NCBI GenBank assembly: GCA_963666285.1
Contig: OY762711.1
Strand: one strand, 5' to 3'
DNA from: Sedimentisphaerales bacterium
GTDB taxonomy: Bacteria; Planctomycetota; Phycisphaerae; Sedimentisphaerales; SM23-30
Length of the DNA stretch: 64,000 nucleotides
A program made the translations under genes and the position numbers. Positions within the stretch are counted from its first letter, which is position 1; every line of letters begins with the position of its first letter. The notes beneath the pieces were generated by a model. The model did not search any database. It was not told the origin of the DNA and saw only the letters and a program-made list of their open reading frames with translations. Below, one piece after another: positions 1 through 16,366 of this stretch.

Positions 1-143
1 TGGATACGGATTAAATCATCTTTGCTAAATCTTTTAAGTTCATCCTTAACAGACTTGTTATACTGGTTAACGGGTATCGGCTTGAACTCTATCTGGCCGC
101 TTTTACGCATATCTGAAGGATTAACAACTTGACACTTAGGCAT
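1..143 (-). CDS. 5' end of a probable TPP-dependent dehydrogenase E1 component (fused alpha/beta type); runs off the window
   Basis: Not in the ORF track. AGGAG RBS (151-155) then ATG at 143; open frame MPKCQVVNPSDMRKSGQIEFKPIPVNQYNKSVKDELKRFSKDDLIRI. This resembles the N-terminus (MPK...IPVNQY...DLIRI) I recall for fused E1 proteins in sugar clusters; E2 and E3 are nearby. Confidence 0.7.
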   Translation of the reverse strand, partial: MPKCQVVNPSDMRKSGQIEFKPIPVNQYNKSVKDELKRFSKDDLIRI

Positions 144-162
144 TTCTTAACTCCTATAATTA

Positions 163-1917
163 TTATTTAACAATTTTAACACCATCAGGTGCTTCAATAT
201 TAGATTTAACAGTACCATCGGGTAGTTTTTCATGACGAATTTTAATAACCCCCTGCGGTACAGGATAAGTTCCCTCAACCCATTTAAGGTCAACTAAATG
301 AGGTTCAATCTTGACTACTTTACAACCTGGTTCCAGTGGCTTTACACCAAGTACATGCTCGCTAAGCCAGGCGGTAGGACCAGAAGCCCAGCCATGACAT
401 AAGCTATGTCGAAATCCGACATAACAGTAATTACCAAAATCACCATGAATATCTTTTTTGCCTTCAGGCACTAATTCATCAATCGGAACTGCATTATCAG
501 TCCAGTCCAGGTCAAAGTCTTCCCAAAATGTTGTAGCCCCCATATCAAGCATACCACCCCAATATTGACGAATAACATCAAGGCTGCCTTGATAATCCCT
601 GGCTTTCGCTCTTGCCTGTAAAACGTAATAGCCATAAAAAGTAGACATACGTTTTGGACCATCAACAGCCATAACCTCCCGGTTCATTTTTTTGGCACCA
701 GCCAAATCAGCTAATGCCAATAATGCCGCGGCTTGCTTGCTGTCAGCAGGGTCTGGCTTGCAAGTTCGAAGCTTTCGTACAGATTTAAGACACCTGTCTC
801 TGGTATCAACCTCATTTAAAATCGAGCATAACTCTGCACCTTTTTCCAGCGTAATAATTAACAGTGCCTGCAACCCTGCATGCTTAGCCTTAGGATTTGC
901 CTGACTGGGCCAATCAAGAAACCGCATTTCAGGAAGAGTTTCCTGGCCGTCTTCAGCAACAAAACCGGATAATTGATTTAACAAACCAGTAATGTACTCT
1001 TTTTGTTTACTAAGAAAATCGATATCTCCTGTATACAGATAATAATCATGCTGTATAAGCAGCCACCACATAGAATATGAGCTTATTCCATTCATCCATC
1101 CCGGAAGCGGTGTTTCTTCACGAATAAGATCAAGACTGTCTTTAACTATATTTTGCCGGCCAAAGACACACTGAATGGTCATTGTTTCAGGATGCATATC
1201 GCCAATCCAGACAAGGCGGTCACGTTTTATGCCATCCCACAGATAATCCTGCATATTTAGGTGTACAGTATACGCTCCAACCTTCCAAATCTCATTCAAT
1301 CGTTCATCATCACACCTGAACGACCCTTTATATTCTAACGGGCGATAAATAAAGACGGCCCGTACACTTTTGAGCTCTAAGAAACCATCACCTAAATAAT
1401 CGATTCTAACAAAGCGAAAACCGGTATTTCCAATTTCAGCCGTCCCAAGCCATGGAATTATTGTTTCCTGGTCACGAACAGCGTGGTCATTGGTAGGGTT
1501 CTTGCCAACGTACAGACCATCACTCATAGCTTCACTAACCGACTCACCAAATCGCACACGAACCGAAACCGGCTTATTACTTAAACTCCCATTTCGATTG
1601 TTCCAGGCCATAATCTGAATACCGCCGTGCAACTCTTTACCAAAATCAAGAAGAATTGAACCACCTGTATGAAGTGAGCATGGATTTGAAGAGCCAAGTG
1701 TTATCTGTCCTGAACGTTTTAATAAAAGTGCTTCCGAATTATTGACTATATCTTCTCCGGAGGTCCAGACAACACGTGTTGGTACCACATATTCTCTTAC
1801 CCGCGGATCAATATCACCGCCTGCCAGACTAGGCGTAGATGCATTTATTTCGCAAAAACATCCAATTGATAATATCAGCGATAATGAAATAATAATCATG
1901 CGTTTTGTTAAATTCAT
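163..1917 (-). CDS. secreted alpha-L-rhamnosidase (GH78)
   Basis: DGIKRDRLVWIGD, GATTFWE and SLCHGWASGP motifs; signal peptide. Start placed at MNLTKR (1917), after a GGGG RBS. Confidence 0.9.
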   Translation of the reverse strand: MNLTKRMIIISLSLILSIGCFCEINASTPSLAGGDIDPRVREYVVPTRVVWTSGEDIVNNSEALLLKRSGQITLGSSNPCSLHTGGSILLDFGKELHGGIQIMAWNNRNGSLSNKPVSVRVRFGESVSEAMSDGLYVGKNPTNDHAVRDQETIIPWLGTAEIGNTGFRFVRIDYLGDGFLELKSVRAVFIYRPLEYKGSFRCDDERLNEIWKVGAYTVHLNMQDYLWDGIKRDRLVWIGDMHPETMTIQCVFGRQNIVKDSLDLIREETPLPGWMNGISSYSMWWLLIQHDYYLYTGDIDFLSKQKEYITGLLNQLSGFVAEDGQETLPEMRFLDWPSQANPKAKHAGLQALLIITLEKGAELCSILNEVDTRDRCLKSVRKLRTCKPDPADSKQAAALLALADLAGAKKMNREVMAVDGPKRMSTFYGYYVLQARAKARDYQGSLDVIRQYWGGMLDMGATTFWEDFDLDWTDNAVPIDELVPEGKKDIHGDFGNYCYVGFRHSLCHGWASGPTAWLSEHVLGVKPLEPGCKVVKIEPHLVDLKWVEGTYPVPQGVIKIRHEKLPDGTVKSNIEAPDGVKIVK

Positions 1918-1928
1918 ATAACCCCCTA

Positions 1929-2723
1929 TCATCGCTTCACTTCTGATATATTTTCTTGACCGGGATAAACCATTTTCACATTATGAGATCTAAGAAATTC
2001 TTCCCATTCCGAGTCAGGTCTTTCATTTGTTATAATTGTGGATATCTGGTGGAAATCCATGATCTTATATAAAGAAGGCTGACCGAATTTACTGCTATCA
2101 GCAAGTAAAATCAGCTCTGTAGCATTTTTGGCTGCAAAAGAATAGATATGGGCACTGTCAACATCGGATGCGGTAATACCAAAATCCATACCAAGGCCGT
2201 CAGTACCAAGGAAAGCACGATAGCCGCGAAGCTTTTCAAGAACTTCAGCGGCCATAGGGCCTACCGTATCCATTCTGTCCGGGCGATATTGACCGCCAAG
2301 CATGAGAACATTAATAGTAGGAATATTAAGTTCCTGAGCAATCCGGGCAGAGTTGATAATAATCGATAAGTTCCTTTTACTCCTAAGGTAAGGGGTCATC
2401 TGGAAACAAGTGGTACCAGAATCCAGGAATAAATGCTCGCCATCAATTATCATATCGCTGGCAAGCCTGGCGATGGCTTCTTTGGCTTCAACGTTTCTAA
2501 CCGATTTGGACATAAAGGAAAAATCGGTCTTGCGGACAACTGACGCTCCGCCGTGGGTAAGTTCAAGAAGTCCTTCGGCAGCCAAACCATGCAGATCCCT
2601 TCGAACAGTAGCTTCAGAGACGCCAAGCTGGTTGGAAAGCTGTCGTACCATTACATAACCCGCCTGGTATGCCGAAGACAGAATCTGTTCTTTTCGCTGG
2701 TTGATACCCATTTCTTTAGCCAT
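1929..2723 (-). CDS. DeoR/GlpR family transcriptional regulator
   Basis: VSEATVRRDL HTH; LDSGTT; LADSSKF. Confidence 0.95.
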   Translation of the reverse strand: MAKEMGINQRKEQILSSAYQAGYVMVRQLSNQLGVSEATVRRDLHGLAAEGLLELTHGGASVVRKTDFSFMSKSVRNVEAKEAIARLASDMIIDGEHLFLDSGTTCFQMTPYLRSKRNLSIIINSARIAQELNIPTINVLMLGGQYRPDRMDTVGPMAAEVLEKLRGYRAFLGTDGLGMDFGITASDVDSAHIYSFAAKNATELILLADSSKFGQPSLYKIMDFHQISTIITNERPDSEWEEFLRSHNVKMVYPGQENISEVKR

Positions 2724-3080: not shown

Positions 3081-5039
3081 ATGTTTTATATCACATTGCC
3101 AAAGAAGCTCCATAAAGCCAGCCAAGTTGTTATATATAAATGGCTTACAGGAGTTGGAGAGAAGATTGAAAAGGGACAAACGCTTTGCGTGGTCCATATC
3201 GGTCAGGAATTATTTGAGATCCAATCAGACATATCAGGCTGCCTTTTGAAGCAAACGGCACCGGCTGGCGGCGTTATTTCAGGTGTCGAGCCGGTTGCAG
3301 TAGTCGGAGAAAAAGGCGAAGACGTATCGATATTGGACAAAAACAGCGATATCAATACTGAAAACAAGGCTGAAAACGCAAAACAGGAAGTAATAGAGAG
3401 TAAAACAGAAACACAATCTGCCCAAGCAACCACAGCGGGAGTCGATAAAATGAGTTCAGAAAGTACAAGCTCAGCAGCGCAAGGTGAAGTTATCCCTATA
3501 CTGATGCCTCAAGCAGGTCAGAGTATGGAAGAAGGAACGATAGTAGCGTGGAAAGTAGCGGAAGGCGACCGAATAGAGGTTGGGCAGATAATCATGGAAA
3601 TCGAGACAGACAAAGCAGTTATGGAAGTAGAAGCTGCGGATGCCGGTCTAGTAGCCAAGATAATAAGCAAAGAAGGCGATATAGTCGAGGTTAAGCAGCC
3701 GGTCGCATTTCTGGCAGAAGAAGGCGTTGACCTGAGCTCTTATACAGGTGTAACAGCAACAAGCGAAGCACCAGCAACAAGCGAAGCACCAGCGGCCAGC
3801 AACGGCGCTACCGCGGCGGCGAACGAAGCCCCTGCGGCGATGCCGGAAGGAGTAACGCCGATTCTGATGCCGCAAGCGGGTCAGAGTATGGAAGAGGGAA
3901 CGATTGTAGCCTGGAAAGTAGCAGAAGGCGACCGCATAGAAGTCGGCCAGGTTATAATGGAAATCGAGACAGATAAAGCAGTTATGGAAGTAGAAGCTGT
4001 TGATGCGGGCCGGGTTGCGAAGATTGTGAGCCAGGAAGGTGATATAGTTGAGGTAAAAGAGCCGGTTGCATACCTGGCAGAAGAAGGCGTAGACGTTGAC
4101 GGCTATATCGCGGCGAGCAGCGGCGGTGCAGCAGGCGTCCAGCCGAGCAGCAGCCACCAGCAAGCGAACAAAGGAAGCGTCGCGTCGGCCAACGGCGAGC
4201 TGAAACAATCGAAATCGCCCGCGCAGCGCACTGAGACGGGTCGCGTCAAGGCCTCGCCGGCCGCGCGGAAGGCAGCTGCCGATGCAGGCATCAACCTGTC
4301 ATCGATCAGTGCCGGGTCCGGGCCGGGTGGTCGCATCCTGTCAACGGATGTAAAAAATGCCAAAATCATCCCATCTGAAGAGGTGGTCATACCACTTACC
4401 AAGATGCGTCGAGCAATTGCCAAGAACCTTCAATATTCGAAACAGACAGTACCACATTTCTATATGAAAGGTACTATTGATGCCGCTAAATTATTTGACA
4501 CTTATAAAGCGACTAAAGAAGAGTTCAAATGCTCAGTGAATGATTTTGTTACCATGGCATGTGCCAAGGCAATACGTCAGTACCCGGCATTCAGGAGTCA
4601 GTATATCGACGACCAGATAGTTGAGAAACCACTGGTGAATATCGGTATAGCGGTTGGAACTGATGACGGGCTGACCGTGCCGGTAGTATGCGATATTGAC
4701 AGGATGACACTAGAGAGATTGGCAGCCAGAACTCGTGAGGTAGTGGAATCGGCACGTAACGGCAAGATGGAAGGTGTCGGCCAGGGCATATTTACAATTA
4801 CGAACCTAGGCATGTTCGGCACAGAAGAATTTTCAGCGATAATCAATCCGCCGGAAGCCGCTATCCTGGCAGTCGGCGCGATTCGTGAAGATATAATAGT
4901 TAAAAACGGTGCGATTATGCCGACACGTGTGATGACAATGACGCTGAGCGTTGACCATAGAGTAATTGACGGCGTATTGGCGGCCCAGTTTATGAATACG
5001 CTTAAAGAGACATTAGAGAATCCAGAAAAGCTCCTATAA
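3081..5039 (+). CDS. dihydrolipoamide acyltransferase (E2) with one degenerate and two intact lipoyl domains
   Basis: two ETDKA lipoyl motifs; ASPAARK...GSGPGGRI E3-binding domain; catalytic DHRVIDG. Confidence 0.95.
   Translation: MFYITLPKKLHKASQVVIYKWLTGVGEKIEKGQTLCVVHIGQELFEIQSDISGCLLKQTAPAGGVISGVEPVAVVGEKGEDVSILDKNSDINTENKAENAKQEVIESKTETQSAQATTAGVDKMSSESTSSAAQGEVIPILMPQAGQSMEEGTIVAWKVAEGDRIEVGQIIMEIETDKAVMEVEAADAGLVAKIISKEGDIVEVKQPVAFLAEEGVDLSSYTGVTATSEAPATSEAPAASNGATAAANEAPAAMPEGVTPILMPQAGQSMEEGTIVAWKVAEGDRIEVGQVIMEIETDKAVMEVEAVDAGRVAKIVSQEGDIVEVKEPVAYLAEEGVDVDGYIAASSGGAAGVQPSSSHQQANKGSVASANGELKQSKSPAQRTETGRVKASPAARKAAADAGINLSSISAGSGPGGRILSTDVKNAKIIPSEEVVIPLTKMRRAIAKNLQYSKQTVPHFYMKGTIDAAKLFDTYKATKEEFKCSVNDFVTMACAKAIRQYPAFRSQYIDDQIVEKPLVNIGIAVGTDDGLTVPVVCDIDRMTLERLAARTREVVESARNGKMEGVGQGIFTITNLGMFGTEEFSAIINPPEAAILAVGAIREDIIVKNGAIMPTRVMTMTLSVDHRVIDGVLAAQFMNTLKETLENPEKLL
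3493..4090 (+). repeat. intragenic duplication of the lipoyl domain (about 3493-3730 and 3856-4090) with an 18-bp tandem repeat (ATSEAP x2, 3754-3793) in the linker
   Basis: near-identical PILMPQAGQSMEEGTIVAWKVAEGDRIEVGQ...ETDKAVMEVEA coding blocks. Confidence 0.9.
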
Positions 5040-5112: not shown

Positions 5113-5120
5113 TTATTTTA

Positions 5121-5251: not shown

Positions 5252-6679
5252 ATGGCAGAACATTATGATATAGCAGTACTCGGAGCGGGACCTGGCGGAT
5301 ATGTGGCAGCGTTGAAAGCAGCACAGATGGGTGCCAAGGTTGCGATAGTAGAGAAACATCATTTCGGCGGCACATGCCTGAACTACGGGTGTATCCCGTC
5401 GAAGGCTTTGCTGGCCTCTGCTGAGATGCTGTATAAGATCCATGACTGCAAATCGCTGGAGATAACAGTCGATGGTAAAGTAAGTTTCGATTGGGATAAG
5501 ATCCAGAAGCGTAAGAATAAAGTTCTGACTAAGCTTCGAGGTGGTATTAAGGGGTTGCTTACAGCTCGCAAGGTTAAGCAGTATGCCGGAAAGGCGGTAC
5601 TGGACGGTGTTGGTAAGGTAAACGTTATCGGCGAGAAAGGTACAGAATCATTTACTGCTGAAAAGATAATCCTGGCGGTAGGTTCTACCCCGGCCCGGAT
5701 ACCAGGCTGGCCGACAAAGCCTGATCTGGTATGCACTTCGGACGAAGCGCTGCACTGGAAAGAGCTGCCGAAGAAGCTGCTGATAGTAGGCGGCGGTGTA
5801 ATCGGTTGTGAGTTTGCGTGCATGATGCACGAATATGGTGTTGAGGTGACGATAGTTGAGCTGATGGATAGCCTGCTGCCAGAGATGGAAAGATCGCTGG
5901 GTGAGACACTGGGCGATGTTTTCCGGAAACGTGGGATGAAGATTTATACCGGTGTAAAGGTTGAGAGCCTGACCGAGGATAAAGGCGGGATAAAAGCCGT
6001 ATTGTCCGGTGATGAAAAACTTGAAGTTCATAAAGTACTGGTTGCTACCGGTAGAAGACCGGCGACCGGCGAGATCGGGCTGGAGACTATCGGGCTGGAG
6101 GCCGAGCGAGGTTTTATAAAAGTTAATGATAAAATGGAGACCGCGGTAAAGGGCTATTACTGTATTGGTGACGCGAACGGTCGATGCCTGCTGGCTCATG
6201 CTGCCAGTGCCCAGGGAGAGGTAGCAGTTGAAAATGCACTTGGCCATGATAAGGCACAGACCAGGCCGATACCAGGTGCGGTATATACGTTCCCTGAGAT
6301 AGCGTCGGTTGGGCTGACAACAAAACAGGCTAAAGAGCGAAATATTCCGATCGCGGTCGGCGAGTTTCCGATTGGATATCTCGGTAAGGCGATGGCGGTT
6401 GGCGAAGAGTTCGGGTTTGTCCGGGTGATCCGCAGCCTGGAAGATGATACGCTGCTGGGCGTACATATGATCGGACATAACGCAACTGAGATAATAGAGA
6501 GTGCCGCGGCGATGCTGACACTTAAGGCGAAGGCGAGCGAGTTGGGCGAGATGATATTTGCCCATCCGACAATATCGGAAGCAGTGAAGGAAGCAGCTGA
6601 AGATTCGTTTGAGAAGGCACTGCATATGCCGCCGAGGAAAATAACAACATTAGTTGCAGATTCAAATAAAGTTGGATAA
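5252..6679 (+). CDS. lpdA: dihydrolipoyl dehydrogenase (E3)
   Basis: GAGPGGY, GGTCLNYGCIPSK, HPTISE. Confidence 0.97.
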   Translation: MAEHYDIAVLGAGPGGYVAALKAAQMGAKVAIVEKHHFGGTCLNYGCIPSKALLASAEMLYKIHDCKSLEITVDGKVSFDWDKIQKRKNKVLTKLRGGIKGLLTARKVKQYAGKAVLDGVGKVNVIGEKGTESFTAEKIILAVGSTPARIPGWPTKPDLVCTSDEALHWKELPKKLLIVGGGVIGCEFACMMHEYGVEVTIVELMDSLLPEMERSLGETLGDVFRKRGMKIYTGVKVESLTEDKGGIKAVLSGDEKLEVHKVLVATGRRPATGEIGLETIGLEAERGFIKVNDKMETAVKGYYCIGDANGRCLLAHAASAQGEVAVENALGHDKAQTRPIPGAVYTFPEIASVGLTTKQAKERNIPIAVGEFPIGYLGKAMAVGEEFGFVRVIRSLEDDTLLGVHMIGHNATEIIESAAAMLTLKAKASELGEMIFAHPTISEAVKEAAEDSFEKALHMPPRKITTLVADSNKVG

Positions 6680-6860: not shown

Positions 6861-8123
6861 ATGGCTGGAACTGAATCTACAAACGGATTCTTAAAGAATA
6901 TTGGGTCAACCGAAGCAATCAAGGCAGAGGCGGGAAATAGCCCGGCCCTGGCAAAGCCTATCGTATCTAACAGTCATATCCATATCCCGCCGAACTTTTC
7001 AGCGTTTGAAACAATCGGTCAGGCGGTTGAGCTGGCGGCGAATGAAGGGATCAATGTTTTGGGGACCGGTAACTATTATGACTTTTCGGTCTATAAAGGG
7101 TTTGCCGATGAATGCCTGGCGAAGAATATCTTTCCGCTGTTCAGTACTGAGATAATCGCGTTGGAGAAAGAGCTGCAGGCGGAAAATATCCGGGTGAACG
7201 ATCCGGGTAACCCTGGTAAATATTATATCTGCGGTAAGAGTATAACGAAATTTGAAGAGTTTACGCCGAGAGCGGCTGAGCTTAACAAGCGGATCCGTGA
7301 TAATGACGCCCTGCGTATGACAGAGATGGCTGCGAAGATGGCGGACTATTTTGCCGGGTTCGGGGTTGATACCAAGCTGGACGATCAGGCGGTAATAGCA
7401 CGAGTTGTGAAACGGCATAACTGCAAGCCTGAAACGGTGACCCTGCAGGAGCGGCATCTGGCACAGGCGTTTCAGGAAGTGTTCTTTGAGCTGGTCGATG
7501 CCGATAGCAGAGCAGCTAAACTGGCAGAGATATTTGGTACCGAACCTAAAGCTGACATTAATGATGCGGTTGGAATCCAGAATGAGATCCGGTCGTATCT
7601 GATGAAGGCCGGTAAGCCATGCTTCGTGGAAGAGTCGTTTGTGACACTGGCCGAAGCGCAGGAATATATCGAAGAGCTGGGCGGGATATCATGTTACCCG
7701 ACGCTGGCGGACGGGTCTAAGGTACCGTGCGAGTATGAAACGCCGGTTGAAAATCTGATCGATACACTAAAGAAGAGTAATTTCCCGATGCTGGAGTTCA
7801 TCCCGAACCGTAATACGCCGGAGGTACTGGAGCAGTATGTAACAGCGGTTCGTAATGCAGGGCTGGTAGTGATAGCCGGGACCGAACATAATACACTGGC
7901 ACTGGACCCGCTTGAACCGAAATGTGTGGGCGGAAAAGATATCCCGGCTAAGGTTCAGGAGATCTTCCATGAAGGTATCTGCGTGCTGGCGGCTCATCAG
8001 TTTTTGTGTGCGAACGGCGAAGCAGGGTTTCCGCAGAGATATAAAGACGCATCGGATAAAGAAAGCGTGATCGAAGAGTTCAGAAAGATAGGAACTGTAG
8101 TTTTGAACAGAAATAACATTTAA
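6861..8123 (+). CDS. PHP-domain (metal-dependent phosphoesterase fold) protein
   Basis: N-terminal NSHIH, STE and C-terminal GTEHN metal-ligand pattern. Confidence 0.7.
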   Translation: MAGTESTNGFLKNIGSTEAIKAEAGNSPALAKPIVSNSHIHIPPNFSAFETIGQAVELAANEGINVLGTGNYYDFSVYKGFADECLAKNIFPLFSTEIIALEKELQAENIRVNDPGNPGKYYICGKSITKFEEFTPRAAELNKRIRDNDALRMTEMAAKMADYFAGFGVDTKLDDQAVIARVVKRHNCKPETVTLQERHLAQAFQEVFFELVDADSRAAKLAEIFGTEPKADINDAVGIQNEIRSYLMKAGKPCFVEESFVTLAEAQEYIEELGGISCYPTLADGSKVPCEYETPVENLIDTLKKSNFPMLEFIPNRNTPEVLEQYVTAVRNAGLVVIAGTEHNTLALDPLEPKCVGGKDIPAKVQEIFHEGICVLAAHQFLCANGEAGFPQRYKDASDKESVIEEFRKIGTVVLNRNNI

Positions 8124-8194: not shown

Positions 8195-8557
8195 ATGGAA
8201 AAACTATCCGACAGGACAAAAGAATTTGCAATTAGAATTATAAAATTATGCCAGGTAATAGATTCCAAACCTGGCATAGGAAAGCTGCTATGTAAACAAT
8301 TGCTTCGATCTGGTACATCAATTGGAGCAAATATTGCTGAAAGTGAAGGAGCACAAAGCGATGCTGACTATCTGACAAAATGCAGCATTGCCGTAAAAGA
8401 AGCTCGAGAGACCCAATATTGGCTTGACCTTCTAATACAGTCAGAAATAATAAATGAGAACAGACCAAAAGATATTAAACAAGAAAGCGACGAAATAGTT
8501 GCTATCTTAACTACTATTTGTAAGAAAATGAAAGATAAGCATAACGCTAAAGTGTAA
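8195..8557 (+). CDS. four-helix-bundle protein (23S rRNA IVS protein / TIGR02436 family, Avd-like fold)
   Basis: RTKEFAIRII...QLLRSGTSIGANIAE...AVKEARETQYWLDLL signature. Confidence 0.93.
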   Translation: MEKLSDRTKEFAIRIIKLCQVIDSKPGIGKLLCKQLLRSGTSIGANIAESEGAQSDADYLTKCSIAVKEARETQYWLDLLIQSEIINENRPKDIKQESDEIVAILTTICKKMKDKHNAKV

Positions 8558-8709: not shown

Positions 8710-9795
8710 ATGGCAGATGTAACAGATAAAATAAATATAATATCGCCGATGCTAAGAGGGCTGCTGGCGAAAGATGATATACGGCCTGTGATCAGTTTTG
8801 TTGAAGCAGCTGACTGCAAATGCAGCGGAGTAAAAGTATCTATCAGCGATTACGATGAAGCTAAGGTACTGGAGGCCCTGGCCGGAGCGGTACAAGGTAA
8901 AGATGCAGAATGTGTCGAGGTTGAAGGTGTCGGCTGCTTTAATGTGAAATATCCCGAACCGGACCCTGTTAAACGGGTATGCGGCAAGGTAGCGATTGTG
9001 ACCGGTGCGGCGCAAGGGTTTGGGCTTGAGATAGCACAGGATCTGGTCGGACAGGGAGCGTATGTGGTGCTGGCGGACCTTAATATCGAAGCGGCAGAAA
9101 ACGAAGCGAAACTGCTGCAGGAAAAGTTCGGCGCTGATAATGCATATGCTATAAAGATGAATGTGACCGATCTGGTATCGATAAAGGAAGCGATATCAAC
9201 TGTCGTGAAGAGATACGGCGGGTTTGATGTGTTTGTCTCTAATGCCGGTGTGCTGAAGGCTGAAAGTGTGAAGACACAGCCGGAGAAGGATTTCGATTTT
9301 GTTACGGCGGTAAACTATAAAGGCTATTTTCTGACGACCCAGGTGGTATCGCAGATATTGAGCCGCCAGAATAAAGCTAACCGGTCGCTCTATAGCGATA
9401 TTATCCAGATAAACTCCAAGAGCGGGCTGGTCGGTTCTAACAGGAACGGAGCTTATGCCGGCGGCAAGTTCGGCGGGATCGGGTTGACCCAGTCGTTTGC
9501 GTTGGAATTGATCGATGACGGGATAAAAGTTAACTCGATCTGTCCTGGTAATTTCTTTGATGGGCCGCTCTGGTCTGAGCCTACGAACGGGCTGTTTGCC
9601 CAGTATCTGAGGACGGGTAAGGTGCCAGGTGCCAAGACAATCGAAGATGTAAAACATTTTTATGAAGAAAAGGTGCCGATGAAACGCGGGTGTACGACCG
9701 CTGATGTGATGAAGGCGGTGTATTACCTGATCGAACAGAAATATGAAACCGGGCAGGCAGTACCTGTTACCGGCGGACAAGTAATGTTAAATTAA
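8710..9795 (+). CDS. SDR oxidoreductase, sorbitol-6-phosphate 2-dehydrogenase (SrlD/SorD)-like, with about 90-aa N-terminal extension
   Basis: TGAAQGFG, NAG, IIQINSKSG...YAGGKFGGIGLTQSFALEL. Confidence 0.85.
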   Translation: MADVTDKINIISPMLRGLLAKDDIRPVISFVEAADCKCSGVKVSISDYDEAKVLEALAGAVQGKDAECVEVEGVGCFNVKYPEPDPVKRVCGKVAIVTGAAQGFGLEIAQDLVGQGAYVVLADLNIEAAENEAKLLQEKFGADNAYAIKMNVTDLVSIKEAISTVVKRYGGFDVFVSNAGVLKAESVKTQPEKDFDFVTAVNYKGYFLTTQVVSQILSRQNKANRSLYSDIIQINSKSGLVGSNRNGAYAGGKFGGIGLTQSFALELIDDGIKVNSICPGNFFDGPLWSEPTNGLFAQYLRTGKVPGAKTIEDVKHFYEEKVPMKRGCTTADVMKAVYYLIEQKYETGQAVPVTGGQVMLN

Positions 9796-10045: not shown

Positions 10046-11713
10046 ATGGAAAATACAATACCAGCAAACCAGCAGGCAATCCAGCTTGTAGGTGAAGATA
10101 AACTGATACATAATACCGATAAGCCGGTTGATAAGCCGGGCCCGTACCAGATACTGCTGAAAGTTGAGGCACTGGGTTTATGTTTCTCTGACCTGAAACT
10201 GCTCAAGCAGTTCAATAACCATGTGCGTAAGAGCGAGATACTGTCTGGAATTGACCCGGCAGTCTTGAAAGAACTGCCGAGCTATAAGCCGGGGACAGAG
10301 CCGGTTGTGCCGGGCCATGAGGCGTATGGTGTAATTGTCGCGGTCGGTGATAAGGTAACCCATCATAAAGCGGGTGAAAAGGTACTGGTCCAGACAGACT
10401 ATCGCTGGCTGAAGACAAAGAACTCCAACTCTGCGTTCGGGTATAATATCGAAGGCGGGCTGCAGCAGTATGTGATACTGGACGAGCGAGTGATAATTGA
10501 GCCTGACAGCGGCGAAAGTTTCCTGATACCGGTTGATAAGGATATCAGTGCAGCGTCTATCGCACTGGTGGAGCCCTGGGCGTGTGTGGAAAGCTCTTAT
10601 ATAACCGAAGAGCGTAATACATTAAAGCCGGGCGGACGGCTGCTGGTAGTGAAGGATGAGGGAAAGAGTATAAGCGGGATCGCGGCGAGCTTATCAGATA
10701 AAGGTGAGCCGGCGGAAGTTACTACATTCGGAGTTAACAGCGACCTGGCGGATATTGAAACTGACGCTAAAGAAGCGGCGAGCCTGGCTGAGCTGCCAGC
10801 TGAATATTATGACGATATTATCTATTTCGGTTCTGATAAAGCGACAATCGAGCTGCTGGATGAAAAGCTGGCGGCCCAGGGTATAATCAATATCGTACTT
10901 TGCGGTGACAAGATCGGTGAAGAAGTATCGGTTGGTGTCGGCCGCACTCATTACGGTATGACACGCTGGATCGGAACGGTCGGATGTGATGCGTGTGAAA
11001 GCTATAAGACAGTGCCGGCGATGGGCGAGATACGACCGAATGATAAGGTCCTTATTATCGGAGCTGCCGGACCGATGGGGCAGATGCATGTTATCCGGGT
11101 ATTGTCGCTGGAGACCGAGAACCTGACCGTAGTTGGAACTGACTTTGACGATGAGCGGATCGAATCGCTGGCAGCGAAAGCCGAGCCGCTGGCGAAACAG
11201 AATAATGTGAAGTTGTCGCTGGTCAATCCTAAAAACAATCCTGTGACTGACAAGTTCAGCTACTTTGCGATAATGGCACCGGTTGGACCACTGGTCGCAC
11301 AGGCGATTAAGGACAGCAGCGAAGGTGCTTTAATAAATATCTTTGCGGGTATCCCGGCGACGGTTAAGCAGGAGATAGACCTGGACCTTTATATTGCCAA
11401 TAAGTGCTTCATGTTTGGTACGAGCGGATCGCGCTTGTCTGATATGAAGATCGTACTGGAGAAAGTTTTGACCGGTAAGCTGAATACTAATTGTTCGGTG
11501 GATGCGATATCCGGTATAGCCGGTGCGATTGACGGTATCCGAGCGGTAGAAGCACGAGCGCTGGCAGGTAAGATAATCGTGTTCCCGCAGAAGCCTGATA
11601 TGCCGCTGACACCGCTGACCGAACTGGCAGAGAAGATGCCGGAAGTGGCCGCGAAGCTGGATAACGGGCTGTGGACAAAAGAAGCGGAAGAAGAGTTGCT
11701 AAAGCAGGGATAA
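10046..11713 (+). CDS. Zn-dependent MDR oxidoreductase, L-sorbose-1-phosphate reductase (SorE)-like, extended
   Basis: GLCFSD and PGHE Zn motifs, LVEPWACV, GAAGPMG, GTSGS. Confidence 0.8.
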   Translation: MENTIPANQQAIQLVGEDKLIHNTDKPVDKPGPYQILLKVEALGLCFSDLKLLKQFNNHVRKSEILSGIDPAVLKELPSYKPGTEPVVPGHEAYGVIVAVGDKVTHHKAGEKVLVQTDYRWLKTKNSNSAFGYNIEGGLQQYVILDERVIIEPDSGESFLIPVDKDISAASIALVEPWACVESSYITEERNTLKPGGRLLVVKDEGKSISGIAASLSDKGEPAEVTTFGVNSDLADIETDAKEAASLAELPAEYYDDIIYFGSDKATIELLDEKLAAQGIINIVLCGDKIGEEVSVGVGRTHYGMTRWIGTVGCDACESYKTVPAMGEIRPNDKVLIIGAAGPMGQMHVIRVLSLETENLTVVGTDFDDERIESLAAKAEPLAKQNNVKLSLVNPKNNPVTDKFSYFAIMAPVGPLVAQAIKDSSEGALINIFAGIPATVKQEIDLDLYIANKCFMFGTSGSRLSDMKIVLEKVLTGKLNTNCSVDAISGIAGAIDGIRAVEARALAGKIIVFPQKPDMPLTPLTELAEKMPEVAAKLDNGLWTKEAEEELLKQG

Positions 11714-11722
11714 GTGATATGT

Positions 11723-11792: not shown

Positions 11793-12857
11793 ATGGAAAT
11801 ATTGCAGATAATAACCGAATTGTCGCACGAGTTTGGTACAAGTGACTATGTACGCGGCGGCGGTGGTAATACATCATGTAAGAGTACTGAAACACTGTGG
11901 GTAAAACCATCCGGTACAACGCTGGCCGGGTTGAAGCCCGAACTATTTGTTGCACTTGACCGTGAGAATCTGGGCGGGCTGTATAAGGTAGAGACACCGA
12001 CAGAGCCGGCTGAGAGAGAAGTACTGGTAAAGGATATAATGGCAAACGCGGTAATGCTGGGCAGTAAAGGTCGTGCATCGGTTGAAGCACCGCTGCATGA
12101 TTCGCTGAGTGCGACTTATGTTGTACATACGCATCCATATTTAGTTAACGGTATGACCTGCGGAAAAGAAGGTAAGGCCAAATGCAAAGAGCTGTTTCCA
12201 GATGCGCTGTGGCTGGACTATATCGACCCGGGCTATACGCTGTGTATGTTTGTTCGTGAAGAGATCAAGAAATATGCCGAGGCGAACGGCCAGGAGCCGA
12301 AGATGATCTTTTTGAAGAATCATGGCGTCTTTGTCGCCGGTGATACAGCAGATGAAGTTCGCGGAATCTATAAGACGATTATTGATACGCTAACGAATTA
12401 CTACGATGAAAAAGGGATTACAGCCGAACTGGCAGTTGAGCCGGACCCGGACGATGACGCAGTTGACCAGGTTGGGCTGAAGCTGGCAGAATGTTTGAGC
12501 GATGAGACTGTCGCAGTTGCGGCATGCGGGATGTTTGACTATCCGCAAGGACCGATTACGCCGGACCATATAGTATATGCGAAGTCTTATCCGTTTGTCG
12601 GCGAGCCGAGTGAGGAAGCGATTAATGAGTTCAAAGCCAAACATGGATACGAGCCAAAGATAGTAGTCTGCTCGGATGCCGTATTTGGTATCGGGCCGAC
12701 AGAGACCAAGGCGGCTCTGGCACTGGAGCTGGCTATTGATGGAGCAATTGTTTTGAAACTAGCGGAAGCTTTTGGCGGAATTGATCTTATGACGGACCAG
12801 GCACGTGAATTTATCGAAAACTGGGAAGTTGAATCTTACCGAAGCAAACAGATCTAA
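11793..12857 (+). CDS. class II aldolase/adducin family protein (RhaD-like N-terminal half of aldolase-SDR fusions)
   Basis: GGGGNTS, KPSG, SVEAPLH, VHTHP, LKNHG, TPDH, WEVESYR. Confidence 0.88.
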   Translation: MEILQIITELSHEFGTSDYVRGGGGNTSCKSTETLWVKPSGTTLAGLKPELFVALDRENLGGLYKVETPTEPAEREVLVKDIMANAVMLGSKGRASVEAPLHDSLSATYVVHTHPYLVNGMTCGKEGKAKCKELFPDALWLDYIDPGYTLCMFVREEIKKYAEANGQEPKMIFLKNHGVFVAGDTADEVRGIYKTIIDTLTNYYDEKGITAELAVEPDPDDDAVDQVGLKLAECLSDETVAVAACGMFDYPQGPITPDHIVYAKSYPFVGEPSEEAINEFKAKHGYEPKIVVCSDAVFGIGPTETKAALALELAIDGAIVLKLAEAFGGIDLMTDQAREFIENWEVESYRSKQI

Positions 12858-13185
12858 GTGAAAATCTTTTGGTGCCCCGATGTACATCGGGAGCTATTAA
12901 TATAGTTTGCGTAAAAGGCAATATAAATAGAAGTAAGAATAACTACTATCTATAGTAGTGCAAAACCGGGCATCAAGCCCTAATTATCAATAACAATCGA
13001 ATACGGAATTTAATTAAATCAGCAGGAGATATTGCGGTTTTTCCTGCTGCGCGTATATTTTAACACCGGTAGTGTTCATATTCGGACCACTGCTTTTTAA
13101 CCTTTACAGAGTACATATATAGAATATAATAAAACGTAAATCTATCCGAATTGTATCTTGTAATAAAAATGAAAGGGTAATTGCT

Positions 13186-14652
13186 ATGAGCGAAAAGCAT
13201 GCATATGCAGCTGTTGACCTTGGGGCTGAGAGCGGCCGCGTGGTCAAGGGCATCCTGAGTAACGGGAAACTAGAACTGGAAGAGATCAACAGGTTCAAAA
13301 ACGGACTTGTCCCTATCGATGGTCACGATCACTGGAACCTGATCAGGTTGTACGAGAATATGATCGAGGCGTTTAAGATCTGTGCCAAGAGCGACGTGCC
13401 AATCGAAAGTATTGGTGTGGATTCCTGGGGAGTGGACTTTGCCCTGATGGCTGAGGATAATGCCCTGATGGGATTGCCGGTGGCTTACCGTGACAGCCGA
13501 ACCGACGGGATGATGGAGAAGCTGTTTGAGAAGATGCCTAAGGATAAGGTTTACGAGAAGACCGGAATCCAGTTTATGAAGTTTAACTCTGTTTACCAGC
13601 TGTTTTCACTTACCCAGGCGAATAAGTCATGGATGGATAAGGTGACAGACTTTCTTATGGTGCCGGACTATTTTCATTTTCTGTTTACCGGTAAAAAGAC
13701 CAATGAATACACAAACGCATCTACCACCCAGCTGCTGAACGTTGAGACAGGTACATGGGACACAGAGCTGCTGGAGACTATTGGTATTAATCCTTCGATA
13801 TTCAAAGAGCTGATCAAGCCGGGAACAAAGATCGGACCGATCACCGAGCAACTTCAGCAGGCGACAGGACTGGGACCGGTTCCGGTGATTGCCCCTGGTA
13901 CGCATGATACTGCATCGGCAGTTGCGGCTGTACCGGCGGAAGGCGGCAAATGGGCATATATAAGCTCAGGCACCTGGTCGCTGATGGGTATTGAAGCCGA
14001 TAAGCCAAACAGCACGCAGAAAGCCTTTGGATATAACTTCACAAATGAAGGCGGCGTATTTAATACGATCAGATTTTTGAAGAATATCATGGGACTGTGG
14101 CTGGTGCAGAGATGCAGGGCTGCATTTGACAAGGAGATCGACTATGGTACACTGACACAGATGGCGGCAGATGCCCCGGCGTTTGTAAGCCTGGTGGATC
14201 CGGATTGCGATGCGTTTATGAACCCTGCATCAATGACAGATGCGATAGATGAATTCTGTAAGAAGACCGGTCAGCCGGTGCCTGCGTCGGAAGGTGCATA
14301 TGTACGCTGCTGCCTGGAGAGCCTGGCACTGCAGTATCGACTGGTACTGGATATGCTGGGTGATGTATATGAAACCGATTTCGATAAGATTAATATCGTT
14401 GGCGGCGGCACCCAGAATAAACTGCTGAACCAGTTTACTGCTGATGCATGTAACGCGGAAGTTGTGACCGGTCCGATTGAAGCTACAATAATCGGAAATG
14501 TGATCATGCAGGCTATCGGAATGGGGCATATCAAGGACCTGAGCGAAGGGCGTCAGATAATACGCAACTCGTTCGAGATGGAGACATTTAAGCCTGGTAA
14601 TGCCGCGGCATGGGACGAGCAATACGAACGGTTTAAGAAGTTGAAAAAATAG
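13186..14652 (+). CDS. rhaB: rhamnulokinase
   Basis: AVDLGAESGR, GVDSWGVD, HDTASA, YISSGTWS, FTNEGG. Confidence 0.95.
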   Translation: MSEKHAYAAVDLGAESGRVVKGILSNGKLELEEINRFKNGLVPIDGHDHWNLIRLYENMIEAFKICAKSDVPIESIGVDSWGVDFALMAEDNALMGLPVAYRDSRTDGMMEKLFEKMPKDKVYEKTGIQFMKFNSVYQLFSLTQANKSWMDKVTDFLMVPDYFHFLFTGKKTNEYTNASTTQLLNVETGTWDTELLETIGINPSIFKELIKPGTKIGPITEQLQQATGLGPVPVIAPGTHDTASAVAAVPAEGGKWAYISSGTWSLMGIEADKPNSTQKAFGYNFTNEGGVFNTIRFLKNIMGLWLVQRCRAAFDKEIDYGTLTQMAADAPAFVSLVDPDCDAFMNPASMTDAIDEFCKKTGQPVPASEGAYVRCCLESLALQYRLVLDMLGDVYETDFDKINIVGGGTQNKLLNQFTADACNAEVVTGPIEATIIGNVIMQAIGMGHIKDLSEGRQIIRNSFEMETFKPGNAAAWDEQYERFKKLKK

Positions 14653-14684
14653 TTAGCGGTTAGCAGAAAGCATAGCTGTTTATT

Positions 14685-15077
14685 ATGAATCATGTTGGAA
14701 AGAAATTATGGGTTGTGCCGGACGGATATATACCGGCATTAACTGACAACGACAAGGATAACGTTAACGGATATCTGTCACACGAATGCGCGTGCATACT
14801 GAATTGCGGGCCTGGTGATGCCGAGATAGAGCTGACAGTCTATTTTGAAGATTGTGAACCGGTTGTGATCGGCGGCATAGTAGTGCCGGCGAGGCGCAGT
14901 TCGCACCTCAGAATGGACGAGCTGGAAATCGACGGTAAAGCCGCGATACCACGAGCGAAACCCTATTCGCTGGTGGTGAAGAGCAGTACGGCGGTGGTGG
15001 TGCAGATGTCCAGATTGGATACAACACAAACAAATATGGCATTTTTATCAACAATGGCTATACCATATGACATTTAA
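14685..15077 (+). CDS. ASRT (sensory rhodopsin transducer) family protein
   Basis: GKKLWVVPDGYIP...SHECACILN...YFED...VVVQMSRLDTTQ signature. Confidence 0.85.
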   Translation: MNHVGKKLWVVPDGYIPALTDNDKDNVNGYLSHECACILNCGPGDAEIELTVYFEDCEPVVIGGIVVPARRSSHLRMDELEIDGKAAIPRAKPYSLVVKSSTAVVVQMSRLDTTQTNMAFLSTMAIPYDI

Positions 15078-15100
15078 TAAGAAATAATGGAGAATCTAGT

Positions 15101-16366
15101 ATGTCAAAGAATATTGAACAAGCTTACGAAATTGCAAAAGAAAAGTATGCAGCGATCGGAATTGATACCGAAGCGGCGATGAAGAAACTTGAGACCGTGC
15201 CAGTGTCAATTAATTGCTGGCAGGGAGACGATGTGGGCGGTTACGAACACGTGGGCGGCGCAGAGCTGACCGGCGGTATCCAGACGACCGGAAACTACCC
15301 GGGTAAGGCTCGCACAATAGATGAGCTTCGCAGCGATATCGAAAAAGCCATAAGCCTGATACCTGGCAACCATCGATTGAACCTTCATTCATGCTACCTG
15401 GATAATGGCGGCAAGTTTATCGATCGTAACGAGATGGAGCCCAGCCATTTCCAGAGCTGGATAGACTGGGGTAAGGGCAAGCTTCACGGGATGGACTTTA
15501 ACCCGACCTATTTCTCACACGATAAAGCCGGTGACGGTTTTACCTTGAGCCATCCGGACAAGGGAATCCGCGATTTCTGGATCGAGCATGGTATTGCATG
15601 CCGAAAGATCGGTGCGGAAATGGGTAAACAGTTCGGTACAACAACAGTAACAAACTACTGGATGCCGGATTCATATAAAGATACACCGGCTGACCGTGTT
15701 GCACCTCGCGAACGTATGGCCGATTCGCTGGACAAGATTTTTGTTGAAGATATCGATCCGAAGCTGCACCTGGATGCGGTTGAATCAAAACTGTTTGGTA
15801 TCGGCGGCGAAAGCTATACTGTAGGATCGCACGAATTCTTTATGGGTTATGCGGTATCACGTCAGAAGGTACTATGTCTGGACGCGGGTCACTACCATCC
15901 AACAGAAATGATCTCAGAAAAGATTTCATCTGTAATGATGTTCTGCCCGGAACTACTGCTACATGTAAGCCGTCCAGTTCGTTGGGACAGCGACCACGTA
16001 GTATGTTTCGATGACGAACTACAGCAGATTGCCAAAGAGCTGGTCCGCAGCGGCAAGCTGGAAAAGGTACATATCGGACTGGACTTCTTTGACGCCTCTA
16101 TCAACCGTGTAGCGGCATGGGTAATCGGTACCCGTAATATGGTTAAGGCAATGCTCTTTGCCATGCTGGAGCCAACCGAAACTCTGCGTAAGATTGAACT
16201 GGAAATGAACTATACCGAGCGACTGGTAATATTCGAAGAATTGAAGACAATGCCTTGGGCAGCTGTATGGGATTACTACTGCATGAAACAGGGAGCTCCT
16301 GTCGGCCTGGACTGGTTCAAGGTTGTTAAGCAGTATGAAAAAGAAGTTCTGTCCAAACGCGGCTAA
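15101..16366 (+). CDS. rhaA: L-rhamnose isomerase
   Basis: CWQGDDV, DFNPT, DAVESKLFGIG, HVSRPVRWDSDH. Confidence 0.97.
   Translation: MSKNIEQAYEIAKEKYAAIGIDTEAAMKKLETVPVSINCWQGDDVGGYEHVGGAELTGGIQTTGNYPGKARTIDELRSDIEKAISLIPGNHRLNLHSCYLDNGGKFIDRNEMEPSHFQSWIDWGKGKLHGMDFNPTYFSHDKAGDGFTLSHPDKGIRDFWIEHGIACRKIGAEMGKQFGTTTVTNYWMPDSYKDTPADRVAPRERMADSLDKIFVEDIDPKLHLDAVESKLFGIGGESYTVGSHEFFMGYAVSRQKVLCLDAGHYHPTEMISEKISSVMMFCPELLLHVSRPVRWDSDHVVCFDDELQQIAKELVRSGKLEKVHIGLDFFDASINRVAAWVIGTRNMVKAMLFAMLEPTETLRKIELEMNYTERLVIFEELKTMPWAAVWDYYCMKQGAPVGLDWFKVVKQYEKEVLSKRG

Follow-up and report, generated by a model that had tools for sequence, protein, structure and literature searches.

A Gene Cluster for the Probable Conversion of Rhamnose and Fucose, Without Release of Lactaldehyde, into Acetyl-CoA and a Four-Carbon Sugar Phosphate

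A gene cluster in the genome of a Sedimentisphaerales bacterium (assembly GCA_963666285.1, here called G000) probably degrades L-rhamnose and L-fucose with no release of lactaldehyde, yielding acetyl-CoA together with a four-carbon sugar phosphate, by a route that appears to be undescribed. The cluster was identified in a 64,000-nucleotide stretch of contig OY762711.1, which we refer to as the window. The original prediction was that a ketose phosphate is flipped by SorE- and SrlD-type enzymes and then cleaved by a TPP- and lipoate-dependent complex, and the genomic data support this sequence of events for predicted substrates. We consider the general design, a flip followed by E1 cleavage to acetyl-CoA and a tetrose-4-phosphate, to be reasonably likely.

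Gene Content of the Cluster

All genes that had been predicted in the window were confirmed at their places. The minus strand contained the 5' end of the gene for a TPP-dependent E1 protein (1..143) and the genes for a GH78-type alpha-L-rhamnosidase with a signal peptide-like N-terminus (163..1932; PF17389, PF17390) and a DeoR-family regulator (1929..2723), which was divergent from the E2 gene. The E1 assignment, previously called probable, was borne out by a leftward extension: the first 143 bases are located inside the window and the remainder to the left, and the intact gene encodes a fused alpha-beta protein of 825 amino acids (G000:C1:5085666-5088143). The DeoR gene adjoined the E1 and E2 genes in 29 of 30 neighbourhoods in the class, and the GH78 gene, here inserted between the DeoR and E1 genes, was not detected in the other 30 E1 neighbourhoods there.

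The plus strand contained the genes for the E2 dihydrolipoamide acyltransferase (3081..5039), which has an E3-binding domain, a catalytic domain and three lipoyl-like domains, two of them with the lipoyl-lysine motif, and for the E3 dihydrolipoyl dehydrogenase (5252..6679; TIGR01350, 515.7 bits, cut-off 408.8). These were followed by the genes for a PHP-fold protein (6861..8123), a SrlD-like SDR (8710..9795), a SorE-like zinc MDR (10046..11713) and a RhaE-like class II aldolase, here called ALD (11793..12857; PF00596). The proteins for rhamnose entry all scored above their curated cut-offs, namely rhamnulokinase RhaB (13186..14652; TIGR02627, 574 versus 528 bits), L-rhamnose isomerase RhaA (15101..16366; TIGR01748, 679 versus 585) and the L-rhamnose/proton symporter RhaT (16455..17765; PF06379, 174 versus 27). 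RhaB was the sole RhaB/FucK-like kinase detected in G000.

Three further plus-strand genes were missing from the original list. A four-helix-bundle protein (8195..8557; TIGR02436) is a sporadic passenger; 3 of the 30 neighbourhoods in the class contain it, and its position there differs. An NCS1-like permease (18052..19593) matched TIGR02358 weakly, and its homologs (53% to 65% identity) travel with rhaA and rhaT in the rha loci of relatives. The third encodes an ASRT-domain protein (14685..15077; PF07100), a candidate stand-in for the rhamnose mutarotase; RhaM (PF05336) was not found in any of the 5 genomes searched, including G000, and the ASRT-domain gene adjoins rhaA in loci L147 and L148.

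The genes from E2 onwards share the plus strand, as predicted, but may not form the single operon that was suggested: the gaps are 24 to 329 nucleotides long, and pattern matches indicated a strong promoter-like site upstream of rhaB (13103-13130) and a long hairpin followed by a T-run downstream of rhaA (16399-16433).

Distribution and Operon Structure

We surveyed 151 class-level genomes and identified E1 orthologs of 68% to 100% identity in 31 of them, with a clean gap to the next matches at 39% or less. E1 tracked with the PHP gene (29 of the 31 E1-positive genomes, against 3 of the 120 others) and with a rhamnose or fucose-type isomerase (31 of 31, against 81 of 120), although the genomes are related and the counts overstate their independence. 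Neither PHP nor the SDR is strictly universal: G046 and G109 gave no PHP match and have the SDR gene directly behind the E3 gene, and the G060 and G038 loci gave no SDR match.

A bacterial microcompartment (BMC) for fucose and rhamnose is known in planctomycetes and verrucomicrobia, and it has its sugars and phylum in common with the module described here. The absence of BMC shell genes noted for the window extended to the whole of G000 (97% complete), with no matches. The suggestion that the pathway replaces the microcompartment was supported, as a BMC was present in 1 of the 31 E1-positive genomes compared to 47 of the 120 others, and within 4 of the 5 families that hold both systems there was no overlap. 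Module and BMC are nearly mutually exclusive in this sense; G166, G167 and G170 carry a BMC locus and several aldolases.

The module is not confined to rhamnose, the sugar named in the original prediction. The rha operon in G170 has the order rhaA-ALD-kinase-SDR-PHP-SorE, whereas its fuc operon reads fucI-fucU-kinase-SDR-PHP-SorE, with the same trio of genes and no aldolase, and these patterns recur in L218, L222 and L221. In L220 and L221, the first gene of the fuc operon encodes a true FucI (57% to 60% identity). In G059 (99% complete), the order is fucI-like-kinase-MDR-SDR-PHP-E1, and AraD is its only class II aldolase; in G028, which is without the module, a RhaD-type aldolase adjoins the fucI-like and kinase genes instead. 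Among the E1-positive genomes, ALD, free or fused, was present in all 26 that have a rhamnose isomerase and in none of the 5 that lack one. It would therefore act before the steps that are shared by the two sugars, and not on the tetrose common to both, as had been proposed.

It is quite improbable that the trio and E1 serve another sugar, such as L-galactose or D-arabinose via FucI and a kinase, or an imported 1-deoxy-ketose, and that the rhamnose link is partly coincidental. Consistent with such a role, the planctomycete FucI-like protein is only 22% to 25% identical to E. coli FucI, some loci contain MtlD-like, PfkB and inositol-phosphate synthase genes, G165 has neither a RhaA nor a FucI match although E1 and SorE-like genes are present, and the rhizobial E1 loci are without rha or fuc genes. 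Exceptions also weigh against the rhamnose and fucose route itself: among 28 non-planctomycete genomes with E1, 4 showed no RhaA and no FucI, and a SorE-like gene was not found in 5. However, a rhamnose isomerase without any FucI match occurs in 10 of the 31 E1-positive genomes, and in several of them the module is located inside the rha cluster; the true FucI of the fuc operons in L220 and L221 also argues against it.

The Aldolase, the Dehydrogenase and the Reductase

Alignment against E. coli FucA and RhaD identified the three Zn histidines, the catalytic Glu and the phosphate-loop Asn of class II aldolases (FucA/RhaD/RhaE fold) in ALD. AraD-type 4-epimerases carry Asp where the aldolases have Glu; Glu was found in all 8 module ALD sequences aligned, whereas AraD of G000 has Asp. 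Judged from these residues, ALD is less probably an AraD, which would leave a net C4 inversion unaffected. The closest characterized relative, RhaE, is a true aldolase (PMC3870299), which, like the Glu, weighs against an epimerase role of ALD.

The SDR and MDR resemble the L-sorbose module of the enterobacterial sor and srl systems, in which the MDR SorE is a ketose-1-phosphate reductase and the SDR SorD or SrlD a hexitol-6-phosphate dehydrogenase; SorE reduces L-sorbose-1-phosphate to D-sorbitol-6-phosphate (PMC12817954). The window SDR had its best match to PRK12384 (SrlD) with 236 bits, below the cut-off of 307, and the SDRs of the Bacillota clusters exceeded it in 4 of 4 tested cases (340 to 384 bits). 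It was 36.5% identical to E. coli SrlD versus 29% to RhaW, retained the SrlD-type catalytic-loop motifs, and neither tree placed it in the RhaW clade; the first tree grouped it with SrlD (97/94), and the second left the SrlD grouping unresolved. The MDR contained the Zn ligand motifs and an insert of about 130 amino acids, was about 24% identical to SorE and had no curated SorE model match, whereas the 420-amino acid copies in Bacillota and Bacteroidota clusters were 50% to 51% identical to SorE. Unlike in the sorbose module, no sorbose PTS was present in the loci read: SorM, SrlA, SrlE and CmtA queries had no match in 34 loci, and no PTS gene was found in the window region. Entry is instead by a rhamnose or fucose isomerase and a kinase, and E1 cleavage would be required for the predicted product, a 1-deoxy ketose. 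We propose that the SDR is a candidate 1-deoxy-D-glucitol-6-phosphate 2-dehydrogenase and the MDR a candidate 6-deoxy-L-sorbose-1-phosphate reductase.

The isomerase and kinase are also shared with the RhaA/RhaI-RhaB-RhaEW pathway (Rodionova et al. 2013, PMC3870299), as is the RhaE-like character of ALD, which frequently forms a fusion with an SDR; the MDR, PHP and E1/E2/E3 are additional here. An unlikely alternative is a RhaEW-like route in pieces, in which ALD, with PHP as a novel fuculose-1-phosphate aldolase, yields DHAP and L-lactaldehyde, the SDR oxidizes and the MDR reduces the lactaldehyde, while E1/E2/E3 acts as a dehydrogenase of pyruvate (or hydroxyacetone). The complete aldolase site in ALD, the RhaEW-like layout of the ALD-SDR fusions and the sister position to RhaW of the SDRs from a second module (second tree) fit this alternative, and the N-terminal extension of about 90 amino acids in the window SDR is probably a relic of such a fusion. 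However, the window SDR grouped with SrlD in the first tree, and the separate window genes scored 76 and 164 bits, and a fused homolog 264, against the TIGR02632 (RhaEW) cut-off of 568. Furthermore, a class II aldolase is missing from the fucose operons, the rhamnose operons retain PHP although they already have ALD, and the lactate oxidation genes of a real rhaEW locus are absent beside the module. The original prediction noted no lactaldehyde reductase or aldehyde dehydrogenase in the window. Outside it, a FucO-like iron alcohol dehydrogenase (35% identity to E. coli FucO, below the TIGR02638 cut-off) is encoded about 12 kb leftwards of the E1 gene, and G000 has AdhE and another class II aldolase at other places; these genes weigh against the preferred route.

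The E1/E2/E3 Complex and Its Separate E1 Clade

The role of E1/E2/E3 as a pyruvate dehydrogenase, which the RhaEW-like route requires, is consistent with its being the only PDH-like complex, with the sole E1, detected in G000. It has the general features of 2-oxoacid and acyloin dehydrogenase complexes: a TPP motif, catalytic His and Glu residues, lipoyl lysine, an E3, and lipoylation genes in the genome (a LipA homolog with 51% identity and two PF03099 matches). However, E1 scored only 109 to 224 bits against pyruvate dehydrogenase E1 cut-offs of 321 to 449 (TIGR03181/03182, PRK09212) and formed a long-branch clade of its own (100/100), apart from the PdhB sequences and the two AcoB sequences, selected by gene context. 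G000 also has a pyruvate:ferredoxin oxidoreductase homolog, and in R. leguminosarum 3841 the E1 gene is plasmid-borne alongside a chromosomal PDH.

Acetoin dehydrogenase AcoABCL cleaves methyl acyloins to acetyl-CoA and an aldehyde in a TPP- and lipoate-dependent reaction. The chemistry proposed here is alike, and the rhizobial E1 copies have an alpha/beta-hydrolase-type partner, as in some AcoC. In contrast to AcoABCL, E1 is fused and does not show the AcoA-type motif that follows the catalytic His, no butanediol or acetoin reductase genes lie nearby, and the proposed substrate is a sugar phosphate. E1 orthologs in Rhizobium pRL8 and Pleomorphomonas (53% identity) adjoin sugar kinases and an epimerase, and a second E1 clade, 29% identical, accompanies the same kinase-PHP-MDR-SDR set in L167 and L165. 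In loci of the G170 type, E2-E3-E1 is located away from the sugar operons and adjoins lipoate ligase and transketolase (22 loci).

The PHP-Fold Protein

The PHP protein had no Pfam match, and its (beta/alpha)7 barrel was recognized by structure comparison. It resembles the RNase AM/Cv1693-type PHP phosphoesterases in fold and helical insert (Z 23.4, rmsd 3.2 over 276 residues, Foldseek E 4e-11, 14% identity) and differs in metal ligands. A motif alignment, based on sequence rather than coordinates, indicated that five of the eight named metal ligands of RNase AM and Arg201 are replaced (D20, H45, H83, H198, H257 and R201 by A48, Y72, Y122, Y279, N344 and L282). The beta and gamma metal ligands are lost, and one site is left (H39, H41, E97, E342). 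Each sugar operon has its own copy of PHP along with SorE/SrlD, and PHP does not stay with E1, which places it upstream of the cleavage and argues against the proposed tetrose epimerase or isomerase. We propose PHP as a candidate L-fuculose-1-phosphate 3-epimerase or, alternatively, a sugar-phosphate phosphatase.

The position of PHP also bears on the scheme of the original prediction, in which the MDR acts on rhamnulose-1-phosphate, 1-deoxy-D-sorbose-6-phosphate is cleaved to acetyl-CoA and D-threose-4-phosphate, and ALD or PHP isomerizes the tetrose. Its chemistry is coherent and the window links all of its genes, but the tetrose from fucose would be identical, and ALD is nevertheless missing from fucose-only loci and genomes, and direct reduction would require specificity changes at two stereocentres in the SorE and SrlD homologs; we consider it very unlikely.

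In a different order of steps, ALD would form fuculose-1-phosphate, the MDR L-fucitol-1-phosphate (1-deoxy-D-galactitol-6-phosphate) and the SDR 1-deoxy-D-tagatose-6-phosphate, followed by a C4 inversion by PHP or by E1 cleavage to D-threose-4-phosphate, with PHP perhaps an accessory phosphatase. This order requires a specificity change at a single centre, accounts for the two genomes without PHP, and fits the DUF89 damage-control phosphatase or HAD genes that adjoin other E1 loci and the divergence of the planctomycete MDR and SDR from SorE and SrlD. We nevertheless regard it as improbable: PHP lacks two of the three phosphoesterase metal sites, and transketolase, the neighbour of E1 in the 22 loci, prefers the erythrose over the threose configuration. 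Moreover, the similarity to SorE and SrlD of the Bacillota copies, from the same kind of operon, points to native stereochemistry, so that D-erythrose-4-phosphate is expected as product and not the D-threose-4-phosphate predicted originally.

Proposed Route

In the preferred order, RhaA and RhaB form L-rhamnulose-1-phosphate, as established for both families. ALD would invert C4 by a retro-aldol/aldol reaction to L-fuculose-1-phosphate, the entry point of fucose, and PHP would invert C3, alpha to the ketone, to 6-deoxy-L-sorbose-1-phosphate, which is the weakest step. By homology, the SorE-like MDR would reduce this compound to 1-deoxy-D-glucitol-6-phosphate and the SrlD-like SDR oxidize it to 1-deoxy-D-fructose-6-phosphate, both with the stereochemistry native to their families. 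This methyl acyloin would be barred from glycolysis, and the dedicated E1/E2/E3 complex would cleave it between C2 and C3 to acetyl-CoA, NADH and D-erythrose-4-phosphate, a predicted substrate for transketolase. All six carbons would be kept, with zero net lactaldehyde. We offer this exact order tentatively, at somewhat less than even odds.

Implications

Pectin, algal polysaccharides and mucin contain rhamnose and fucose as major components that are degraded slowly. To our knowledge, the known phosphorylated routes all release lactaldehyde, and half of the carbon is usually excreted as 1,2-propanediol, propionate or lactate. The full reading, which is plausible but short of probable, is that many polysaccharide-degrading anaerobes in at least four phyla share an undescribed route that brings all six carbons into central metabolism. 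A class II aldolase would serve as ketose-1-phosphate 4-epimerase and, together with a sugar-phosphate epimerase that would be the first with a PHP fold, bring both sugars into the L-sorbose configuration. SorE/SrlD would then flip the carbonyl adjoining the methyl group, and a TPP/lipoate complex of a new class would split 1-deoxy-D-fructose-6-phosphate oxidatively into acetyl-CoA and erythrose-4-phosphate. The E1 clade would represent a general sugar-phosphate-cleaving complex recruited at least twice.

If so, the split to lactaldehyde would be avoided, and by our own count substrate-level ATP per sugar may increase to about 3.7, compared with about 2, provided that electrons exit as H2 or to an acceptor. 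The fermentation products predicted for sediment, digester and gut anaerobes would change, sugar phosphates would be added to the substrates of 2-oxoacid-dehydrogenase-type complexes, and a PHP family of over 2,400 homologs without a Pfam model would gain a function. The labels "pyruvate dehydrogenase", "sorbose reductase" and "RhaEW" on such genes would then need correction.

Gene Content of the Cluster and of the Source Genome

All of the genes listed in the original prediction were present in the window, and RhaA, RhaB, and E3 passed their curated cut-offs in profile searches. The proposed extension to the left recovered an intact, fused alpha-beta TPP enzyme of 825 amino acids (E1), with a start at window position 143, and its TPP-binding and catalytic motifs were identified in a sequence alignment. 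A single E1 and a single E2 were found in the source genome (G000), together with one lipoyl synthase homolog and 2 matches to the lipoate/biotin ligase family. A terminator scan gave a result near chance (23 vs. 18.2 ± 4.6), and a single transcript for the plus-strand genes is a candidate reading.

The absence of microcompartment (BMC) shell genes, noted previously for the window, applied to the whole source genome, which is 97% complete. A gene for a FucO-like dehydrogenase is located outside the window, 12 kb to the left of E1. Together with AdhE and a second, duplicated class II aldolase encoded in other parts of the genome, this enzyme could allow a conventional side route. The FucO-like protein is an iron alcohol dehydrogenase (35% to FucO), and its gene is followed by one for a PAS histidine kinase (G000:C1:5072680-5076451; L001 4680-8451), which we take to be more likely an alcohol-sensing pair. 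A separate cluster of fucI-like, fucP, and fucU genes (G000:C1:4617732-4621623; L125) contains neither a kinase nor an aldolase gene, and fuculose use therefore probably depends on RhaB and the E1-containing module in the window.

A gene for an ASRT-domain protein (14685-15077) is located between rhaB and rhaA. A search of 5 related genomes detected RhaM in none of them, and the rha operons of Bacillota contain RhaM but no ASRT gene; the ASRT protein may be a non-orthologous substitute for rhamnose mutarotase, or else bind sugar. An intergenic repeat of about 65 nucleotides with a short terminal hairpin occurs at 5049-5113, 8121-8185, 9877-9941, and 17763-17827, with 72 BLAST matches across the genome, and 2 further short repeats were noted (5112/6712 and 5171/6777). 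The ECF-like sigma factor gene next to a Ser/Thr kinase gene at 20477-23224 represents an ordinary planctomycete pair that is unrelated to the module.

E1 and Its Relatives

We searched a class sample of 151 genomes, including the source genome, each at least 80% complete, and used the same sample throughout. E1 orthologs were identified in 31 of these with 68% to 100% sequence identity, the next matches being at most 39% identical. Of the 30 other neighborhoods, which spanned up to 20 kb each and several of which were ended by contig ends, 29 contained DeoR and E2 next to E1, and 19 contained all 3 genes for the PHP-fold protein (PHP; 6861..8123), the SrlD-like dehydrogenase (SDR; 8710..9795), and the SorE-like zinc reductase (MDR; 10046..11713).

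In the phylogeny, E1 formed a long-branch clade of its own, apart from 2 AcoB sequences and 1 PdhB sequence, and it scored below every PDH cut-off; a phosphate-binding signature could not be pinned down from its sequence. An ortholog with 53% identity was observed in Rhizobium pRL8 (L116 12830-19649) and in L120 and L138. In the rhizobial loci, a standard E2 is replaced by a free lipoyl domain plus an alpha/beta hydrolase, next to a sugar epimerase and a PfkB kinase, a xylulokinase, or a mannitol dehydrogenase and lipA, and the rhizobial enzymes seem, as judged from these neighbors, to cleave other ketose phosphates.

A second clade of fused E1 proteins, 29% identical to the first, was associated with homologs of the kinase, PHP, MDR, and SDR in G108 and G150, and the 3 genomes that encode a free RhaE-like class II aldolase-fold protein (ALD; 11793..12857 in the window) without an E1 ortholog all carry a second-clade E1. 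In this second module (L167, L165/L176, and L164 with L173), the PHP proteins were about 24% identical and the SDRs were sisters to RhaW, which may have evolved from this family. Further fused E1 paralogs (34% to 39%) in L033, L034, and L180 are accompanied by genes for an LsrF-like thiolase, RPE, class II aldolases, and PfkB kinases, a candidate for a related yet different sugar pathway.

The module would resemble a sor-type carbonyl flip joined to acetoin-dehydrogenase chemistry. When tested for membership, it fell outside RhaEW, AcoAB, PDH, the sor operon, the trinuclear PHP phosphoesterases, and the microcompartment pathway. No published account of such a pathway was found among the papers listed in searches of a literature that includes few subscription journals, and a Phycisphaerae genomics paper (PMC11266412) contained no passage on it.

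The SorE-Like and SrlD-Like Dehydrogenases

The 420-amino acid MDR proteins in the clusters of Bacillota and Bacteroidota were 50% to 51% identical along their length to an annotated SorE, which reduces L-sorbose-1-P to D-sorbitol-6-P (PMC12817954). The MDR in the window is a diverged form that carries an insert. All 4 SDRs from the Bacillota clusters passed the SrlD cut-off, whereas the SDR in the window fell below it; it retained SrlD-type motifs and clustered with SrlD, apart from RhaW, in one tree (support 97/94); a second tree did not resolve the grouping with SrlD.

A gene for an MtlD-like mannitol-1-P dehydrogenase adjoins the module in L015, L025, L039, L043, L066, L067, L099, L152, and L161, and this enzyme would take the other C5 epimer (the D-fructose-1-P or 6-deoxy-D-fructose-1-P series). 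A Deinococcus plasmid (L117 11129-15883) encodes a long, insert-bearing MDR with an SDR, an FGGY kinase, and a mannose-6-P isomerase, but no E1. In 2 spirochaete-titled genomes (L229 and L230), the query used did not detect a SorE-like gene, and rhaA, a fused ALD-SDR gene, and PHP adjoin another, split E1 alpha/beta and E2.

Rhamnose and Fucose Operons

Among the E1-positive genomes, ALD was present in all 26 that encode a rhamnose isomerase (free in 15 and fused to the SDR in 11, one of which was ended by a contig end) and in none of the other 5. G053 contained just a 25% to 31% identical ALD paralog in another cluster. The aldolases in the 5 genomes were AraD and/or an unlinked aldolase-family protein shared with the source genome; G059 (99% complete) had AraD alone, despite its clustered genes for a fucI-like isomerase, kinase, MDR, SDR, PHP, and E1.

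The gene order in G136 was fucU-fucP-fucI-like-kinase-MDR-SDR-PHP-E3-E2-DeoR-E1, whereas G028, from the same genus, lacked the module and contained a RhaD-type aldolase gene next to the fucI-like and kinase genes. In G115, rhaA was paired with a RhaD-type gene. Two parallel operons were present in G170, rhaA-ALD-kinase-SDR-PHP-SorE and fucI-fucU-kinase-SDR-PHP-SorE, the latter with a FucI 57% identical to that of E. coli; the first type recurred in L218 and L222 and the second in L221. In these genomes, E2-E3-E1 are located at a separate place, followed by transketolase and lipoate ligase genes.

These contrasts suggest that SDR, PHP, and SorE are common to both sugars and act upstream of E1, that ALD is a rhamnose adaptor, and that the module occupies the place of the aldolase. 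The contrasts should not be over-read, since a BMC locus, together with several additional aldolases, is also present in G166, G167, and G170. FucO was non-discriminating: none of the 151 class genomes exceeded the TIGR02638 cut-off, and matches at 1e-60 occurred in 11 of the 31 E1-positive genomes and not in the aldolase-route control, G028. A shuttle with cleavage by one aldolase and re-condensation by another was also considered, and was dropped because the fucose loci lack an aldolase and the duplicated aldolase of the source genome was detected in no more than 2 of the 31 E1-positive genomes and in 7 of the whole sample of 151.

The Aldolase-Fold and PHP Proteins

The alignment indicated that ALD has a full aldolase site, including the Glu. 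In RhaEW, a lactaldehyde-removing domain is required for aldolase turnover (PMC3870299). Lacking a lactaldehyde sink, a stereo-relaxed aldolase would just equilibrate the C4 epimers. Among solved structures, ALD had just a weak, uncharacterized match, and none was found for the fused E1 clade.

The predicted structure of PHP (pLDDT 92) has a fold that resembles RNase AM. When mapped by sequence, the RNase AM ligands H13, E72, and D255 (named in PMC9410882) correspond to H39, E97, and E342 in PHP, in which H41 is also invariant, while D20 is replaced by A, each of H45, H83, and H198 by Y, H257 by N, and R201 by L. Residues E197, R198, H199, D284, and R317 were invariant in all 42 aligned sequences. 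One metal with spare acids would fit enediolate chemistry better than phosphoester hydrolysis. A structure search for an isomerase relative gave only PHP and amidohydrolase folds among the matches listed, which is neutral, neither for nor against epimerase activity.

Genome-wide, PHP was found in 29 of the 31 E1-positive and 3 of the 120 other class genomes. It was not found in G046 and G109, where E3 abuts SDR, and the PHP step would therefore be the weakest link of the route proposed below. The E1 loci of G060 and G038 contained no SDR.

A Proposed Route for Rhamnose and Fucose

The configurations are 3R,4S in rhamnulose-1-P, 3R,4R in fuculose-1-P, and 3S,4R in 6-deoxy-L-sorbose-1-P. Two inversions from rhamnose and one from fucose would thus be needed to reach the SorE configuration. 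In the cluster, a single enzyme specific to rhamnose could break C3-C4 (ALD), and a single enzyme common to both sugars is left with no assigned role (PHP). The step order is proposed because the inversion count matches this division. From the observed gene content, families, folds, and co-occurrence, we infer every substrate as follows. Rhamnulose-1-P would be converted to fuculose-1-P, and this to 6-deoxy-L-sorbose-1-P, which would yield 1-deoxy-D-glucitol-6-P and then 1-deoxy-D-fructose-6-P, the last being cleaved to acetyl-CoA, NADH, and D-erythrose-4-P. We consider the general design, a carbonyl flip followed by E1 cleavage to acetyl-CoA and a tetrose-4-P, to be fairly probable, while the exact order via fuculose-1-P and 6-deoxy-L-sorbose-1-P to D-erythrose-4-P is put forward tentatively, with some doubt.

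Distribution and Relation to Microcompartments

A scan of species genomes identified at least 533 E1 relatives, and the 80 listed include records with titles naming Phycisphaerae, Bacillota, Bacteroidota, and Spirochaetota, with 58% to 84% identity. Among 28 genomes of other phyla, chosen from the longer loci of the relatives listed, RhaA was found in 19 and FucI in 21, whereas 4 had neither isomerase; a SorE-like gene was found in 23.

The co-occurrence of the module with rhamnose genes, suggested as a check in the original prediction, was borne out in the class sample: a rhamnose or FucI-like isomerase was found in all 31 E1-positive genomes and in 81 of the 120 others, class counts being inflated by genome relatedness. 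The isomerase was RhaA in 18 genomes, a RhaI-like protein scoring under its curated cut-off in 8 more, and FucI-like in the last 5. BMC shell genes showed the opposite pattern (1 of 31 E1-positive vs. 47 of 120 E1-negative genomes). Within f4, f7, f9, and f10, families that contain both kinds of genomes, no genome carried both E1 and BMC genes, and the single overlap was in f12. On the basis of these isomerase and shell gene distributions, we conclude that the module is part of methylpentose breakdown and stands in for the microcompartment.
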